Position numbers and translations under genes: made by a program. A DNA stretch of 64,000 nt from Escherichia phage vB_EcoM_CRP22, in the sequence record OQ708377.1; one strand, written 5' to 3'. Shown here one piece after another: positions 1-18,776 of the stretch; position 1 is the stretch's first letter; every line of letters begins with the position of its first letter. The notes below the pieces were generated by a model. It was not told the origin of the DNA. It was given only the letters and a program-made list of their open reading frames with translations, and ran no database searches.

Positions 1-1100
1 GCCCCCTTAACATCTTCTTAACAAATTCTTAACAATACCTACATAGTTATGCTTGTTAGAGACTTGTTAGCCCCTTGTTAAATCTCTGTTAAAACCACGT
101 AAAAGCTTTGTAAGAGTCTTTGACATAGCCTTAAAAGCTCCTGTAAAGCCTTATAAATAGGTGTCTGTATAGTTGGGGTGTAATTACTAGGAAGAGGTTT
201 AAAAGAGCTTACAAGGAGCTATAGAGAGCTTTTAAAAGGGCTATTTAGAGAATCACTAAGAGGGAAAGGGAACGATAAGAAAGAGATAGTGACCATGTTA
301 ATAGCTTGTTAAAAAGATTAAACACTTGTTAGGAACTTGTTAATTATCTTAACAAAATAACTCTTAAAAATTAACTTGTTAGCTCTTGTTAGTCATCCGT
401 TAAGACGCTGTAAAGCCCATGTAGCAACTGTTAAGAACTTGTTACAGCCTTGTTAGTTCTGTTAAGAGTCTGTTAAGACCTCTGAAGAGATGTTAAGAGG
501 ATGTAATAGCTGTTAAGAGATTGTTAAGGATATTTTAAAATTCTGCAAAGGGGATGTTACAGGGATGTTAAGGGCTACCAAGCAGATATACATCTTCTAC
601 AGATATTTTTGAGTTCCTTCAAAGACCCTAAAAAATGACTTGATAGTCCTATTTTATAAAAATTTTAAAATTCTGAATAATTACCTAGACAGTCTTTTAA
701 AAATACAGGCATAAACAGGCTTATAAGATACCTTGTTAGTACCGTGTTAGACCTTGTGAGATAAGGTCTGTAAAGATATTCCTGTTAAGTTTGTTAAAAC
801 AGTCTATATAGAGGCTTAGTAATATCTAGTGAACACCTATAGAGGGTAACATAGCTGACATAATGGGTTACTGTTAAGTAACACAGGTAACCTAGAGATT
901 AAGAGGTGTATAGGAGCTTCTAAGAGGGTATAGAGAGGTGGTTAAGGTGATTGTATAGGTTGTTAAGAAGGCTTGTTAGAAGAGTGTTTAGAAGGTTTAT
1001 ACAGAGGGCTATTAAGACCACTAGATAGATACTAAGATACTATATAGTACTATATAACTATATAGAGAGTAAGATTAAGAAGGTTGTTAAGAAGTGTGGA
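1..1100. repeat. Non-coding array of ~35 degenerate short repeats, consensus YTGTTAR / CTGTTAAG, in both orientations
   Basis: No ORF over 60 aa except a low-complexity one; motifs such as cttgttag, ctgttaag, atgttaag recur every 10-25 nt between 20-600 and again 720-1100. Confidence 0.6.
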
Positions 1101-1223
1101 TATTTTATTCACATATGATGGTGACCCAGAGGTTGGAACAACCGATAAAATTTTATAAAAATTATAAATTTCGTAAATTTTACTCAATAAAAAGCCCCCA
1201 ATTAAGGAGGCTCTTAAGGTATT

Positions 1224-1904
1224 TTAAATCAGTGTTTCCAGAACTGTTTTTAATGATGACTTGGTTGTCTGATAAAAATGAGTGAACCCATTGTTGTTAT
1301 CGAATATCAGCATCATGATATCATCTCCCTTGATTGGGTATACTCGGATATCATAGTGAGAGCCATTAAAGACAGCAGAACCATTACAGAATACACTAAA
1401 ATCATCCACTGAGATATACTCTTCATGGCTTGTGATTTTTATACAGACACCTTTACTCGGTCTCTTAGGGTTGATATCTTCCATCACAGACATACTCTGT
1501 CCACCAAGAGATACCATAGTGACCACTTTACGGTTCTTCTGTCTAAGGTACATTTTAGCTTTCTGTAAAGTATCTTCATAGAACGGATAAGACTTCTCTA
1601 CAAAGATTCCTTCAAGTGGCTCTTTACCATTCTTAACTTCTCTGATATGCCGTACTGTTAAGACAAGCTGCTCTAGTCTGTTAAGGCTTTCTTTGGATAA
1701 TGCTTCTTGAACATCATTCCAGTCAAGTACCAAGTACTTTCTCTCTAATTCAAACTGTTTTTCCATATCTATCAAATCCTGAAAATACTTCTTAGTGATT
1801 TTTGACCACTCAGCAAAATGAATCTTTTTCTTCTTCCGAAGGAGAACCATATCTTTCAAGTTCATCCAATTCATTCTGCGAAGGTGTCCCGTAAGATTCT
1901 TCAT
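1224..1904 (-). CDS. hypothetical protein
   Basis: 226-aa ORF starting at ATG; no motif recognised by eye. Confidence 0.45.
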   Translation of the reverse strand: MKNLTGHLRRMNWMNLKDMVLLRKKKKIHFAEWSKITKKYFQDLIDMEKQFELERKYLVLDWNDVQEALSKESLNRLEQLVLTVRHIREVKNGKEPLEGIFVEKSYPFYEDTLQKAKMYLRQKNRKVVTMVSLGGQSMSVMEDINPKRPSKGVCIKITSHEEYISVDDFSVFCNGSAVFNGSHYDIRVYPIKGDDIMMLIFDNNNGFTHFYQTTKSSLKTVLETLI

Positions 1905-5208: not shown

Positions 5209-5237
5209 AAAATAAAAAAGGCTCCCAAAGGGAGCCT
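5209..5237 (-). terminator. Rho-independent terminator after endolysin gene
   Basis: Hairpin ggctccc-aaa-gggagcc followed on the minus strand by a T-run. Confidence 0.55.
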
Positions 5238-5246
5238 ATGAAGATA

Positions 5247-5711
5247 TTACTTTGGATATATGTTGTCAAGATAAATGGCAGCTTCCATTCTACGTCTGTT
5301 TGCAAGACCTTTGGAGACTACTTTCTTACCTTTGACTGTAACCTTGTTCCACCACTGCATAGCTTCTGCACAACCGACCTTATTACCAGCGTTGTGGTGC
5401 TTGATAAATGTAGAGTCCTGCATAGCCGTGATACCAATGTTGTATGTTTCACTTACAAGTGCATCAAACTCATTCTGAGAAGTTGGAACCTTGATGGCTT
5501 TGTTAACTGCTGCAACGAACTTCTCAACATCTGCGAGAAGATACTGTTCAGCTTGTTCAGCAGTAATTTTCATACCCATCTTAACAGGTTTTCCGTCAAT
5601 ACGGATTGTACCATACCCGATTGTTGGGATTCCGGCAGAGTCTTCGTAAGCCTCTAACTTCAGGCCTTCAAAGAACTTAATGGCTTCTAAGCCTTTTCTT
5701 GAGAGTTGCAT
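5247..5711 (-). CDS. endolysin, phage lysozyme (glycoside hydrolase family 24-like)
   Basis: 154 aa; N-terminal LEAIKFFEGLKLEAYEDSAGIPTIGYG matches the conserved catalytic region of T4/P22-type lysozymes. Confidence 0.85.
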   Translation of the reverse strand: MQLSRKGLEAIKFFEGLKLEAYEDSAGIPTIGYGTIRIDGKPVKMGMKITAEQAEQYLLADVEKFVAAVNKAIKVPTSQNEFDALVSETYNIGITAMQDSTFIKHHNAGNKVGCAEAMQWWNKVTVKGKKVVSKGLANRRRMEAAIYLDNIYPK

Positions 5712-6355: not shown

Positions 6356-6723
6356 TTCTTTTTAGCCTCTAAATGTGCGTTTAGTCTAAAATAACCTTTG
6401 TGATGCGGAGATACATCACCAACAACAATGCCTTTAACCTTATAACCTTTACCAAGTACATACTGGATATCCATAAGGAATCTTCCAAGACCAACAATAT
6501 GGAACATGGGATATAATAGCTTCTCAGAGTCTGGAATATTGATTTCAGGTTTGTAGGTGCATTGTTCGCTTGTTGGTGTGATATCTTCTTCAGGCCATTT
6601 ACTGAGTCTCCATGTCAAAGGTGTTGGGATAACATCATTAAGGTTGTACCTTTCACCATTTTGCACGGAATTGATATAGGATTGTAGGAAGCAATAAAAG
6701 TCTTTTGCACTCTTAGCTTTCAT
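6352..6723 (-). CDS. hypothetical protein, paralog of N-terminal domain of 5711..6355
   Basis: 123 aa; conserved blocks KWPEEDI, YKPE, LLY, FLMDIQYV shared with downstream gene; ATGA start/stop overlap. Confidence 0.5.
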   Translation of the reverse strand: MKAKSAKDFYCFLQSYINSVQNGERYNLNDVIPTPLTWRLSKWPEEDITPTSEQCTYKPEINIPDSEKLLYPMFHIVGLGRFLMDIQYVLGKGYKVKGIVVGDVSPHHKGYFRLNAHLEAKKK

Positions 6724-8433: not shown

Positions 8434-9849
8434 ATGAGCGAGTTATTTAAACATGCGCACCTTCATGTAGGTCGAACTGAAAATGGTGCTGTAAACCATA
8501 CTTCATCAATGTCTGCTCTGGTAGACTTCTACAAAGCCGCTGGCTCAAGCCGTAGCAATGTAGAAATCTTACCAGACCTGTTCTACAAAGCTTTGCGTGA
8601 GGATGTTGATGTTGCAGTTCGTATTTTACTGCATATGCGAGATGTACGAGAAGGTATGGGTGAGCGTAAAGCTTTCCGAACTGTTTTGCTTCAAACGATT
8701 GAAGATAAGGTTTTAGAACCTACACAGGTTCTTCGCATTATGGATAAGATTGCAGAACTTGGTCGTTTTGATGACTTCAAAATCTTCGTAGGTACTCGTT
8801 TCGAGACAGATGCCTTCAAACATTTAGAAGCAGCATTACTAGACCCTGCAACAGCAGGTTTAGCGGCTAAGTGGTTACCACGAGTAAAACCACGCCACAA
8901 ACAGTTTGTAAAACGTTTCTGTAAGTTTGCAAACTTAAGCGAGAAGGAGTATCGCACACTGTTATCTGCACTGTCTGATACGGTTGAGCAAAAAATCTCT
9001 GCTAATGAGTTTGGTAAGATTGACTACAGCAAGATTCCTTCACTCGCTGCTGCACGTTACCAAAAACTCTTTAACCGTAAAGATGGGGAACGTTACAAAG
9101 CTTACATCGAGTCCCTCTCAAAAGGTGAGGCTAAGATTAACGCTGGTGCTGTTTACCCATATGATGTGATTAAATCTATTAAGTATGGTAATGCAGATGT
9201 TGCTAACGAGCAGTGGAAAGCACTACCAAACTGGATGGCAGAAGGTGAAAACATCTTGTGTATGACTGATGTTTCAAGCTCAATGTCTTGGGTGAATCTT
9301 GGCTCAATTACTGCCCTTGATATTGGTGTATCACTTGCCTTGTATGTAGCAGAACGCAATACAGGTTGCTTTAAAGATGAGTTAATGGTCTATTCAACAA
9401 ACCCTCATTTCATTGAACTGAGTGGTGATTTACGAAACCGTCATCGTCAGGTGATGCGTCATGTTGAATATGGTTCAACTAACTTACAAGCAGCCTTTGA
9501 CCGCATTCTTGAGACAGGTAAGAGAAACAACTTGACTCAGAAAGATATGCCAAGTAAGCTTATCATCTTCTCCGATATGGAGTTCAATCAGGTTGATGGA
9601 GCTAACGGTCGTACAAACTTTGAAGCAATTCAGAGCAAGTACAAAAAAGCTGGATATGAGATGCCACAACTGGTATTCTGGTACTTAGCAAACCGTAATG
9701 GCACTTGCGAAGTGTCTGTTAAGGATAATGGTGTAGCAATGGTATCAGGGTTCTCTCCAGCCACTTTAAAAGCTCTGCTTGGTGGTGAGAAGTTTGACCC
9801 AATCAGCGTAATGCTCAAAGCAGTAATGATTGACCGTTACATCTGGTAA
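8434..9849 (+). CDS. von Willebrand factor A (vWA) domain protein; possible Ro60/TROVE-like protein
   Basis: 471 aa; MIDAS-type DxSxS motif (CMTDVSSSMSW) after a ~270-aa N-terminal region; Ro60 assignment is inference from context only. Confidence 0.6.
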   Translation: MSELFKHAHLHVGRTENGAVNHTSSMSALVDFYKAAGSSRSNVEILPDLFYKALREDVDVAVRILLHMRDVREGMGERKAFRTVLLQTIEDKVLEPTQVLRIMDKIAELGRFDDFKIFVGTRFETDAFKHLEAALLDPATAGLAAKWLPRVKPRHKQFVKRFCKFANLSEKEYRTLLSALSDTVEQKISANEFGKIDYSKIPSLAAARYQKLFNRKDGERYKAYIESLSKGEAKINAGAVYPYDVIKSIKYGNADVANEQWKALPNWMAEGENILCMTDVSSSMSWVNLGSITALDIGVSLALYVAERNTGCFKDELMVYSTNPHFIELSGDLRNRHRQVMRHVEYGSTNLQAAFDRILETGKRNNLTQKDMPSKLIIFSDMEFNQVDGANGRTNFEAIQSKYKKAGYEMPQLVFWYLANRNGTCEVSVKDNGVAMVSGFSPATLKALLGGEKFDPISVMLKAVMIDRYIW

Positions 9850-9867
9850 AAAGTTTTGAAAAGGGTA

Positions 9868-9896
9868 TTGACAATGTGTTTAATACCCTTTAATAT
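9868..9896 (+). promoter_or_regulatory. sigma70-like promoter embedded in an inverted repeat, upstream of tRNA array
   Basis: TTGACA - 17 nt - TAATAT; flanked by aagggtatt ... aataccctt. Confidence 0.5.
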
Positions 9897-10014
9897 GTTC
9901 TACATAGAAACGAAATGAGAGCTTTTCTAAGATACTGAAAAATATTTTAAAAAAGTTCTTGACAACCACTAAAAAATAATGTTAAAGTGGTTACATAGAG
10001 TTTGAAAAGTTTAT

Positions 10015-15670: not shown

Positions 15671-15691
15671 TTCTATTTGCGGAGGTGCTTA

Positions 15692-17293
15692 ATGGATTTA
15701 AATGCTGTTAAGCAGAAGCGAGTGGAAGATGTTAGGAAAGTCCTAGCTGGAGAGTTGGGGCTTTCTGATGAAGTAAAAGAAATTATCAAATCATTCGGTA
15801 AAGACCCCTCTAAATTCCTTCCAACTCAAATTCTGACTTTATTAAGATACACACCAGACCAAGTTAGACTTATCTTCAAATTGATGACTGATAAGAACTA
15901 TGTAGCCCCTCAACCGGGTTCTCAAGAGGTGTTTTTAAATACTAATGCTGACTTGGTTTTATATGGTGGTGCTGCTGGTGCTGGTAAAACTGCTGCATTG
16001 TTAATGGACTCTTTAAGGTTTATTGAAGACCCTAACTATAATGCTGTATATTTCCGTCGAAATACAACACAGTTACAAGGTGGTTTATGGCCTGCTGCAA
16101 AGAAACTATTTGGTAAGTTTGGTGGGGTTCCTCACGAGCAGAAGATGACTATCACATTCCCTTCTGGGGCAACTATCAAGTTTACCTACCTAGAACTTGA
16201 AAAGCACGCTGAAGGTCATCAGGGTATTGAATACTCAGCTATTTACTTTGACGAAGGTACGCACTTCTCTGCTTCACAGATTTCATACCTACAGACTCGT
16301 CTACGTTCTGGGGCTGAAGGTGATTCATACATGAAGATTTCTATGAACCCAGACAGAGACCACTTCATTTATGATTGGGTAGAGCCATTCTTAGATGAAG
16401 AAGGTTACCCAGACCCTGAGAAATGTGGTCGTATTCGTTGGTATGTTATGAATGATGGTGTGATGGTTTCTGATTGGGAGAGAGACAAGATTCTTGAAAT
16501 GTTCCCTCTTGAGATTCCTCAGACATACACCTTCATCTCTGGTACGATTGATGATAACCCAATTCTTGACTTCTTAGAACCTAAATATCGTGGTAAGTTG
16601 GAAAACAACACACCTGTAAACGTTGCAAGACTTCGTTTCGGTAACTGGAAGGCTCGTGCAGAAGGTTCAAACTATTGGCAAAGACAGTGGTGTGAAATTG
16701 TTGATTCACTCCCAGAAGATGTGTTTGATGTCAGAGCATGGGACTTAGCAGCGACTTTACCATCTGAAATTAACCCTAACCCAGACTGGACAGCGGGTGT
16801 TAAGATGGGTAAATCTAAAAAAGACGGTTGCTATTATATCATTGATGTAGTAAGATTTAGAGATAGACCCTCTGGAGTCGAAACACAAATTAATTTGACT
16901 GCTGAAAGTGACGGTAAGCGAACTGGTATTTTTATCCCTCAAGACCCAGGCGCTGCTGGTAAATCCTATGCAACATCCCTCATCAGGAAACTTGCCGAGA
17001 AAGGTTATCGCGCAAGAGCTAAACCAACAAATAAAGATAAAGTTACCCGCTTTGCGGGATTTTCTGCTGCTTCTGAAGCTGGACTTGTAAAAGTCTTGAG
17101 AGGTAGTTGGAACGAAGCTTACTTTCAAGAACTTGAAGGTTTTTGTGGTGATGGTAAAACTAAAGATGACCAAGTGGATGCTACCAGTGATGCTTTCAAC
17201 AGTCTTAACGAAGTTAAATTATTCAAGCCACCATCAATGGGTGCTCACACAGACTTAGTGAGAGGAAACCCATATGAGGGGCTTAGACGTTGA
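15692..17293 (+). CDS. terminase large subunit
   Basis: 533 aa from ATG after GGAGGTG; Walker A LYGGAAGAGKT; C-terminal nuclease-like region; the track ORF begins at an upstream TTG. Confidence 0.85.
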   Translation: MDLNAVKQKRVEDVRKVLAGELGLSDEVKEIIKSFGKDPSKFLPTQILTLLRYTPDQVRLIFKLMTDKNYVAPQPGSQEVFLNTNADLVLYGGAAGAGKTAALLMDSLRFIEDPNYNAVYFRRNTTQLQGGLWPAAKKLFGKFGGVPHEQKMTITFPSGATIKFTYLELEKHAEGHQGIEYSAIYFDEGTHFSASQISYLQTRLRSGAEGDSYMKISMNPDRDHFIYDWVEPFLDEEGYPDPEKCGRIRWYVMNDGVMVSDWERDKILEMFPLEIPQTYTFISGTIDDNPILDFLEPKYRGKLENNTPVNVARLRFGNWKARAEGSNYWQRQWCEIVDSLPEDVFDVRAWDLAATLPSEINPNPDWTAGVKMGKSKKDGCYYIIDVVRFRDRPSGVETQINLTAESDGKRTGIFIPQDPGAAGKSYATSLIRKLAEKGYRARAKPTNKDKVTRFAGFSAASEAGLVKVLRGSWNEAYFQELEGFCGDGKTKDDQVDATSDAFNSLNEVKLFKPPSMGAHTDLVRGNPYEGLRR

Positions 17294-17309
17294 TAGCTAG
17301 GTGAGAAGA

Positions 17310-18776
17310 ATGGCAGAAATTACAGAAACACAAGAAAGCTTACCACCATTTAGAATGGGTGAAGTAGGTTCTTTGGGTCTGAAGGTTAAGAATGGTAGAA
17401 TCTATGAAGAACCTCGTCAGGCACTAAGGTTCCCTGAAAGTATTAAAACTTTCCAATTAATGATGCGTGACCCTGCTGTAGCAGCATCTGTAAATATTAT
17501 TAAGATGTTTGTCAGAAAAGTCAACTGGAGATTCGTACCTCCAAAGGGAAAAGAGCAAGACCCTAAAATGCTTGAAAGAGCAGACTTCTTTAATTCTTTA
17601 ATGGATGACATGGAGCATGATTGGGCAGATTTTATTAACTCTGTAATGTCATTCTGCACTTATGGGTTCTGTGTTAACGAAAAGGTTTATAAGAAACGTC
17701 AGGGTAAAAAAGGAAAGTACCAGTCAAAATTTGATGATGGTCTAATTGGGTGGGCTAAATTACCAATCAGAAACCAATCAACACTTGATAAGTGGTATTT
17801 TGACGAAGACTTTAGAAAAGTTACTGGTGTCAGACAAAATCTAAGAAATGTTTCACATATTGCTGGAGCAATTAATCTTGGAGAAAGACCACTAACAAGA
17901 AAACTCCCACGAGCTAAATTCATGCTGTTTAAGTATGATGACGAGTATGGTAACCCAGAAGGCCGTTCACCATTACTTAACGCTTATGTACCGTGGAAGT
18001 ATAAAGTACAGATTGAAGAGTATGAAGCTGTTGGTGTTTCAAGAGACTTGGTAGGTATGCCAAAGATTGGTCTACCACCAGATTATCTGGATGAAAATGC
18101 AGAACCTGAAAAGAAAGCTTTCGTACAATACTGCAAAACTGTTGTTAATGATATGATTGCTAACGATAGAGCAGGTTTAATCTGGCCTAGATATATCGAC
18201 CCAGATACTAAAGAGGATATTTTTGAGTTCTCATTAGTTTCTAGACAGGGTGCTAAAGCATATGACACAGGCTCTATTATTGACAGGTATTCTAAGCAGA
18301 TTATGATGGCATTTATGTCAGATGTTCTTGCTATGGGCCAGTCAAAATACGGTTCATTCTCTCTTGCAGATTCTAAGACAAGCTTATTAGCAATGTCAGT
18401 AGATATTCTGCTGAAGCAAATTAAGAACGTAATTAACCGTGACTTAGTTGCACAGACTTATGCTCTTAATATGTGGGATGATGAAGAACATGTGCAAATC
18501 ACATATGATGATATCGAAACTCCAGACCTTGAAGCAATTGGTTCTTATATTCAGAAGACTGTTGCAGTAGGTGCTTTGGAAGTTGACAAAGAGCTATCTA
18601 ACAAACTTAGAGAGCATATTGGTCTTCCTCCTGCTGATGAGTCTCAGCCAGTATCTGAAAAGCTTTCTCCGAATAGCCAAAGCCGTTCAGGAGATGGTTA
18701 TAAGACCGCTGGAGAAGGTACTGCAAAGACACCTTCAGCGAAAGACCCAAGCACAGCAAATAAGGCAAATAAATAA
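17310..18776 (+). CDS. portal protein
   Basis: 488 aa; immediately follows large terminase and precedes prohead protease; acidic/basic C-terminal tail; the track start is GTG at 17301. Confidence 0.65.
   Translation: MAEITETQESLPPFRMGEVGSLGLKVKNGRIYEEPRQALRFPESIKTFQLMMRDPAVAASVNIIKMFVRKVNWRFVPPKGKEQDPKMLERADFFNSLMDDMEHDWADFINSVMSFCTYGFCVNEKVYKKRQGKKGKYQSKFDDGLIGWAKLPIRNQSTLDKWYFDEDFRKVTGVRQNLRNVSHIAGAINLGERPLTRKLPRAKFMLFKYDDEYGNPEGRSPLLNAYVPWKYKVQIEEYEAVGVSRDLVGMPKIGLPPDYLDENAEPEKKAFVQYCKTVVNDMIANDRAGLIWPRYIDPDTKEDIFEFSLVSRQGAKAYDTGSIIDRYSKQIMMAFMSDVLAMGQSKYGSFSLADSKTSLLAMSVDILLKQIKNVINRDLVAQTYALNMWDDEEHVQITYDDIETPDLEAIGSYIQKTVAVGALEVDKELSNKLREHIGLPPADESQPVSEKLSPNSQSRSGDGYKTAGEGTAKTPSAKDPSTANKANK

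Follow-up and report, generated by a model that had tools for sequence, protein, structure and literature searches.

The first 579 bp of the DNA analysed here, a 64,000-nucleotide stretch of record OQ708377.1 (Escherichia phage vB_EcoM_CRP22; hereafter the window), almost certainly constitute the left copy of a short direct terminal repeat (DTR), with position 1 at the genome end. This copy is filled with short TGTTA elements, which very probably form a conserved, phased and selected putative protein-binding platform at the genome ends. Core, spacing and orientation of the elements match the binding sites of the host oxygen-response regulator ArcA, a candidate link, and ArcA-P is the best candidate for the binder, an assignment that we hold only tentatively.

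The window belongs to a Felix O1-like myovirus (Felixounavirus), and its junction region matches more than 220 records of Felixounavirus, Suspvirus and Mooglevirus at 80–95% identity; a search for distant relatives via the flanking genes returned the same 253 records only. The hosts named in the matching records are all Enterobacterales, with the exception of the record 'Staphylococcus phage SA1'. This 147-kb record (GU169904.1) carries a Felix O1-type junction inside, at 135884–137055, with 93% identity; such a junction in a Staphylococcus-labelled record suggests that GU169904.1 is a chimeric or contaminated assembly.

The terminal repeat and the end of the genome

Four independent records (D4, NBEco005, Ro111lw and NBSal004) begin at window position 1, and exact terminal repeats computed in the three records that hold both ends measure 581 bp (D4), 613 bp (Ro111lw) and 694 bp (NBSal004). 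In these three the edges are base-identical (left, ...GTAAATGCTA/GCCCCCTTAACA; right, ...TGTTAAGGGCTACC/AAGCAGATATACA; the slash marks the edge), and the last 581 bp of D4 correspond to window 1–579. The UAB_69 record annotates the homologous 618 bp, which map to window -2..581, as 'DTR'. For UAB_Phi87, from the same laboratory as UAB_69, a 608-bp repeat has been described whose termini were mapped by Bal31 digestion and run-off sequencing (PMC4837284). PhageTerm gave a repeat length of 613 bp for Ro111lw (PMC6454146), and the D4 termini in the literature were likewise obtained with PhageTerm. The termini mapped experimentally or from reads in these relatives coincide with window positions 1 and 579, which is the comparison with genome termini that the original prediction had proposed. 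It is from the shared record starts, the exact repeats, the UAB_69 annotation and the mapped termini that the assignment of 1–579 as the left DTR copy follows. Since the window does not contain the right end, the presence of the repeat at both ends of this particular genome is by homology (92–94% identity).

The suggestion that the whole of 1–1100 might be a terminal-repeat region therefore holds for 1–579; the remainder belongs to the unique left-end DNA outside the DTR, which extends over 580–1190. The DTR itself is already known for the genus, and its recognition here is solid and routine; papers on the Felixounavirus DTR in the searchable literature report the existence and length of the repeat and no motif array. 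The phage DNA is packaged with fixed ends, and in replicating concatemers a single copy of the repeat lies between two converging gene blocks, with terminase cutting at both repeat edges. In relatives whose records are opened circularly the region lies within a 1.7-kb gap devoid of genes, towards which the two gene blocks converge, and their circular or concatemer maps place about 465 bp of further repeat-rich non-coding DNA across the junction from the window start. Because the window start is the genome end, the array is cut there only in this sense. On the right-end side of the repeat, outside the window (L001 5449–5913), lies unique DNA with a second repeat family (CTATAAAG, CTTAAAAG and AAAGTTAC), and three copies of AAAGTTAC immediately precede the left cut.

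From TGTTAAGGGCTACC/AAGCAGATATACA onward, the sequence at the right edge is identical in all 18 aligned genomes from three genera. Because the three elements beside the left end stand in inverted orientation, the left edge (GCCCCCTTAACATC) and the right edge (GATGTTAAGGGC) form an imperfect inverted repeat, and reading inward from either physical end gives GCCC(CC)TTAACATC.

The junction (Table 1) contains no complete open reading frame of at least 40 amino acids in 1–1049, as expected of the non-coding region that had been proposed. Rfam gave no match below E = 0.09 in the array region, and an RNA gene or riboswitch was rejected on this ground; a promoter cluster was rejected as well, the region having no strong sigma-70 promoter and only weak 9-of-12 matches. 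The first gene inside the left end (1224–1904, minus strand) encodes 226 amino acids of family phrog_4330; most relatives align only from about residue 35–52 on, so that its start or N terminus differs. Recognising the DTR guards against mistaking the region for an origin or a CRISPR-like array.

Table 1. Features at the left end of the window (window coordinates; slash, cut; blank strand cell, none given)
Feature	Position	Strand	Description
Left DTR copy (almost certain)	1..579		Short direct terminal repeat; position 1 is the physical left genome end
Three TGTTA elements, 11-nt period	7..35	-	TAACA at 8, 19 and 30; beside the left terminus; kept in 16–17 of 17 relatives
Four TGTTA elements, exact 11-nt spacing	53..92	+	Cores at 54, 65, 76 and 87
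TGTTA-free middle of the DTR	96..290		Degenerate ~11-nt units (CTTAAAAG, CTGTAAAG, GAGCT words); lag 11, z = 3.9
Main array	295..571	+	16 plus-strand cores (296–566) and one minus-strand core (350)
Right DTR edge	554..592		ATGTTACAGGGATGTTAAGGGCTACC / AAGCAGATATACA, cut after 579
Unique left-end DNA beside the DTR	601..800		A+T-rich tract 649–687; TGTTA cores at 734, 745, 783 and 792; 14–17 of 17 kept
Purine-rich degenerate repeats	801..1090		TATAGAG, TTAAGA, CTATATAG; less conserved; scattered cores at 872, 961, 974 and 1085
Terminator-like hairpin	1195..1209	-	Ends the leftward gene block; inner limit of the non-coding junction; 'terminator' annotated here in AYO145A

Layout and conservation of the TGTTA array

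Positions 1–1100 contain 34 TGTTA cores, 28 on the plus and 6 on the minus strand, where 1.75 per strand are expected from the rest of the window. The count of about 35 short YTGTTAR repeats given in the original prediction is thus real and refers to the 5-nt core, since the strict YTGTTAR word occurs only 25 times here (101 times in the whole 64-kb window). By the same expectation CTTGTTA is found 12 times (0.12 expected) and TATAG nine times (0.71 expected); the CTTTAAAAG-type words and the TATAG-rich tract (1020–1080) that had been pointed out are also present. Outside the junction YTGTTAR occurs at background frequency, and it was therefore rejected as a general promoter or regulatory word of the genome. 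The extended consensus of the array reads cTTGTTAAGa, and the DTR proper holds 24 TGTTA elements in its 579 bp.

The repeats had been described as lying in both orientations at an irregular spacing of 10–25 nt. Both strands are used, although with the strong plus-strand bias given above, and three of the six minus-strand elements come first in the array, at its far left end. The spacing, however, proves regular: 11 of the 27 gaps between successive TGTTA are exactly 11 nt, the modal value (the others are mostly 9, 10, 20 and 33 nt), and phase coherence is highest for a period of ~10.25, so that the sites share one face of the helix. Runs of three to four elements keep the 11-nt spacing exactly. 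In each DTR segment, including the TGTTA-free one at 96–290, autocorrelation is strongest at lag 11. Elements adjoin both cuts, at 7–35 nt from the left and 8–25 nt from the right, and both edges are invariant. A CRISPR array would have repeats of at least 20 nt with unique spacers of similar length; the units here measure ~11 nt and the spacers 4–6 nt, in agreement with the earlier dismissal of that identity.

Conservation was measured in an alignment of 18 genomes from three genera, retention being counted over the 17 relatives of the window. Core positions inside the DTR are 98.1% conserved, compared with 86.9% elsewhere in the DTR, and none of 20,000 random placements reaches 98.1%; over 281–580 the values are 98.8% for core positions and 86.5% for the others. 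Outside the DTR, 581–1100 shows no excess core conservation, and in 801..1090 the cores are no better conserved than the remaining positions (0.789 versus 0.899). Substitutions are located in the 4–6-nt spacers, and indels among the relatives add or remove 11 or 22 nt (one 11-nt unit, for instance, has been gained or lost in 53..92), so that the length of the repeat varies (581–694 bp) while its edges stay fixed. As this comparison shows, selection appears to keep the 5-nt TGTTA core, head to tail and on one face of the helix, in a repeat built from ~11-nt units. Core selection and helical phasing lend good support to the putative protein-binding platform that had been among the suggested functions.

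The most conserved part of the junction is window 601–800 (mean identity 0.955–0.969, compared with 0.88–0.90 inside the DTR). This stretch, which lies close to the repeat but outside it and includes the invariant A+T-rich tract, may be where terminase itself recognises the DNA, or may act as an origin or a promoter. A 32-nt insertion at about 856–887, which carries the near-palindrome GTTACTGTTAAGTAAC, is found only in this window and in LTH02.

The motif search in relatives that had been proposed finds the array present and its cores conserved in the 17 relatives from three genera and, in addition, in Erwinia phage phiEa21-4 (Kolesnikvirus), a phage that is absent from the DNA search matches and has a 70%-identical large terminase. 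In its syntenic gap TGTTA occurs 17 times on the plus and 11 times on the minus strand (1.7 expected), and TGTTAAGA seven times. The only significant similarity between its junction and the window is a block comprising the right end of the repeat and the boundary (471–592, E = 4e-10), in which 554..592 falls; the TGTTA word and the right edge thus recur in a junction that is otherwise barely alignable. From a weak match to the left end of the window, a repeat of about 440 bp is predicted for phiEa21-4, at roughly 17028–17466 of NC_011811. Its second repeat family differs, with CTTCTAAG in place of CTWTAAAG and CTTAAAAG; at 16560–16910 (L031) the family is replaced there by 12 copies of CTTCTAA[AG]. 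In the Pseudomonas relative PaP1 the terminal repeat is coding and has neither TGTTA nor an array, and the terminase tree offers no intermediate lineage usable for a host-switch test.

Candidate binders of the array

ArcA-P binds 10-bp elements (ATGTTAAAAA) with the core TGTTA, arranged as direct repeats with centres 11 bp apart; its sites comprise 2–5 elements, and in most of 158 ChIP-seq sites there are 3–5 of them, 11 or 22 bp apart; TGTAA occurs naturally as a weaker form of the core, and elements close to the consensus are occupied even in the presence of oxygen (PMC4173790; PMC3798270). The array likewise presents direct TGTTA repeats with 11-bp centres in sets of at least two elements. 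An individual-information matrix for ArcA was rebuilt from 115 of the 128 published E. coli ChIP-seq boxes (published scores are reproduced with r = 0.994) and applied with the cut-off of at least 15 bits used in genome scans (Table 2). The four DTR boxes above this cut-off score 17.4–21.8 bits and include 7–24 (17.6 bits), 18–35 (21.8 bits) and 75–92 (17.6 bits); 295..571 holds ten ArcA-type boxes of at least 10 bits. Box 18–35 exceeds every listed chromosomal box (maximum 21.4 bits), and the equivalent left-terminal boxes of Felix O1, Mijalis and SUSP2 reach 22–23 bits. The same enrichment of ArcA-type boxes at the junction is seen in four genera, and in phiEa21-4 the TGTTA word is stable (TGTTAAGA) where the second repeat family has diverged (CTTCTAAG versus CTWTAAAG). 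In an RB-TnSeq screen of Salmonella, arcB disruption made cells resistant to FelixO1 (PMC8744999). The D4 genome encodes both aerobic (NrdA/NrdB) and anaerobic (NrdD/NrdG) ribonucleotide reductases (L150, 10533–18043), and the phage is thus equipped to replicate in oxygen-free hosts.

Table 2. ArcA-type boxes found with the rebuilt matrix
Sequence scanned	≥15 bits	≥12 bits
Window DTR (579 bp)	4	10
Window beyond 1100 (62.9 kb)	1	11
Dinucleotide shuffles of the DTR, mean	0.024	0.19
Junctions of LTH02, Felix O1, Mijalis, SUSP2, UAB_69 and phiEa21-4, each	6–8	11–14
Rest of D4 (87 kb)	4	17
Rest of phiEa21-4, first 50 kb (48.8 kb)	1	3
T7 left end (1.2 kb)	0	0

The matrix score rests mainly on core and spacing, and the matrix test is independent of neither. 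The flanks do not show the A/T preference of ArcA: the 34 phage sites score -1.14 bits and 200 background TGTTA -1.53 bits (p = 0.55). G follows TGTTA and TGTTAA (element positions 7 and 8) in 26% and 47% of the phage sites, compared with 3% and 8% of ArcA sites, and C precedes the core (element position 1) in 21% compared with 3%. The array also includes steps of 9 and 20 nt. ArcA-P is low in aerated LB culture. It is in ordinary aerated LB that Felix O1-type phages have been grown (PMC8744999). In the RB-TnSeq screen arcA is missing from the table of FelixO1 resistance genes, and arcB is among 29 non-receptor genes that confer resistance to both FelixO1 and a T5-like phage, a gene set that the authors tie to RpoS and global effects (PMC8744999); the genetic support for ArcA is therefore weak. 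With respect to spacing, ArcA sites use 11 or 22 bp, and a 12-bp spacing is not bound (PMC3798270). In the literature searched, no paper ties ArcA to lytic phage DNA or phage genome ends and none describes this array, and a TGTTA array inside the DTR is apparently undescribed. Other host regulators were rejected on sequence: PmrA, with the consensus YTTAAK-N5-YTTAAK, clashes with the invariant C of the phage reverse complement CTTAAC, and PhoB has the core TGTCA, TorR recognises CTGTTCATAT and RcsB an inverted repeat.

A 5-nt core with one-turn spacing could be a chance match to a host regulator, and a TGTTA array at terminase cut sites fits a phage-encoded recognition protein equally. A putative packaging protein of the phage, either a small terminase or an accessory protein, would then bind TGTTA head to tail and position the large terminase, its likeness to ArcA being coincidental; we regard this as a genuine possibility, if on balance a doubtful one. 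It would account for an array that fills the DTR and abuts both cut sites, with edges invariant across three genera, and that places repeated putative protein sites next to the terminase cleavage positions. The flanks have a preference of their own (TGTTAAG, CTTGTTAG) that departs from that of ArcA, spacings of 9 and 20 nt occur, and arcA is missing from the FelixO1 hits; the recurrence of the word in phiEa21-4, with its related large terminase, would moreover be explained by a conserved phage protein. No small terminase is recognised in the group, whose DNA-recognition component is thus missing: none was recognisable beside the large terminase (window 15677–17293) or in the annotations of a Pharokka-annotated relative, an absent annotation not being an absent protein. 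On the other side, the open reading frames beside the large terminase and beside the junction are without a DNA-binding domain, and the sole regulator annotated in that relative is a 99-residue XRE-type HTH protein, a type that usually binds inverted rather than direct repeats. Annotation and tblastn yielded no phage-encoded ArcA/PhoB-like (OmpR/PhoB-like) protein (all E > 0.5, with approximate probe sequences), and between genera the second repeat family diverged while TGTTA did not. The packaging site that the original prediction had listed among its options is plausible.

The origin and the partition site listed beside it have little support. As a replication element, the array would consist of iterons at an origin or of primase start sites near each 3' end of the linear genome. 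The A+T-rich tract beside the array is conserved, a DnaA-box-like TTATTCACA lies at 1104–1112, the nearest TGTTA at each end is on the strand whose 3' end is that terminus, and the phage encodes its own primase/helicase. However, the array units measure 11 nt, compared with the 17–22 nt typical of plasmid and phage origin iterons, no initiator gene lies nearby, only one DnaA-like box is conserved, priming needs no helical phasing, and GC skew merely tracks gene orientation, which together leave a replication role very unlikely. A DnaA-box pair at 1095–1112 was rejected, its left box being specific to this window. It is highly improbable that the array acts mainly as a decoy that titrates ArcA-P as genomes multiply and so frees respiratory metabolism from repression by ArcA in hosts short of oxygen. 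Each genome copy does carry many good ArcA-type boxes, and NrdD/NrdG equip the phage for anaerobic hosts, but a decoy would need neither a terminal-repeat location nor sites abutting the cuts nor the inversion at the left end. The array might, finally, have no specific binder and be a by-product of slippage or unequal exchange in non-coding DNA, or act by DNA shape (curvature) only. Units are frequently gained and lost, with DTR lengths from 581 to 694 bp, and many unrelated viral contigs contain simple 11-nt tandem duplications that include TGTTA; here, in contrast, spacers differ while cores are kept, conservation is 98% for the cores and 87% for the rest, and the same word persists in the genus of phiEa21-4 where the junction is otherwise barely alignable, so that this reading, too, has only a slim chance of being right.

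The array would serve as a platform for cooperative, head-to-tail binding of a protein of the winged-helix type, with ArcA-P as the best candidate. If ArcA-P is the binder, its bound and bent filament would mark both repeat edges for terminase and/or cover the ends of newly injected genomes, and the left-terminal sites, being near consensus, would be expected to be occupied even at low ArcA phosphorylation. More broadly, the Ounavirinae, an entire subfamily of virulent phages of enterobacteria, may have filled their terminal repeats with tens of near-consensus elements for the host redox regulator ArcA. ArcA would then coat the ends and the concatemer junction as an architectural cofactor in recognising or protecting the ends, and so couple DNA handling to the oxygen state of the gut host, a scheme that we put forward with reserve. 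Should ArcA bind, Felix O1-type phages would depend on their host in a way that is new; these phages serve for Salmonella typing and for biocontrol, and the gut in which they work is poor in oxygen, a condition under which ArcA is active. Should the binder be a phage protein, the array offers a handle for finding the missing small terminase of the group.

Repeat arrays and ArcA sites in other systems

Most of the more than 120 loci returned by an IMG/VR scan for four TGTTA at an 11-nt period are plain tandem duplications, and the scan supplied no information on hosts. Among the contigs, IMGVR_UViG_3300043120_000090 (L121, an 86-kb metagenomic contig of T5-like, Demerecviridae type) carries at 5237–5345 a run of eight TGTTA spaced 11 nt apart, including ATGTTAATAAAATGTTAA (24.9 bits). 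The run lies in the gap directly upstream of a 165-residue open reading frame, after which comes a large-terminase homologue; at the matching spot the isolated relatives Ceto and KKP_3711, also T5-like, have no array. In phage T5 (NC_005859) the left terminal repeat carries minus-strand ArcA-type boxes at 5316–5333 and 6578–6595 (23.5 and 20.8 bits), and the injection-stop region contains none. These isolated high-scoring boxes or arrays in T5 and the T5-like contig are a hint of a possible wider use of ArcA by phages. Contig L120 (128 kb, from an unrelated phage) has about a dozen TGTTAA at 11-nt spacing with varied spacers in non-coding DNA at about 9730–10000; its sole database relatives are human-faecal phage fragments.

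The window DTR is homologous to those of UAB_Phi87 (608 bp) and Ro111lw (613 bp), has the same two edges and occupies the same place between converging gene blocks; it differs from them in no respect of kind and is another copy, of 579 bp. The DTR of T7 is likewise short, lies at fixed genome ends and has a recurring short word both within it and immediately past its edge: at the T7 left end, CCTAAAG is found at 17, 41 and 60 in the 160-bp repeat and eight more times at 175–332. T7 nevertheless uses another word, without an 11-nt phase, in a repeat of 160 bp, and has no ArcA-type box of at least 12 bits in 1.2 kb. For the binder of short-repeat arrays at fixed phage ends, such as those seen in T7, the present array offers a concrete candidate in ArcA-P. 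At or near the inner edge of the T7 repeat, insertions have been found to be essential (10.1101/2024.10.10.617714).

The E. coli ArcA-P sites at icdA, astC and acs share with the array the TGTTA core, 11-bp direct repeats, cooperative extension and in-phase TGTAA variants. Chromosomal sites, however, have 2–5 elements and overlap promoters, whereas the array has 24 elements in 579 bp, lies off promoters, and shows G-rich flanks and some 9- and 20-nt steps. The proposed role of ArcA-P at the phage ends would have its closest parallels in IHF, a host protein that helps lambda terminase at cos (cosB), and in ArcA-P itself, which is an accessory factor for Xer recombination at psi. In both cases, as in the proposal, a host DNA-bending protein sits beside the site at which an enzyme of the element cuts or recombines DNA; unlike at cosB and psi, the sites in the window number in the tens.
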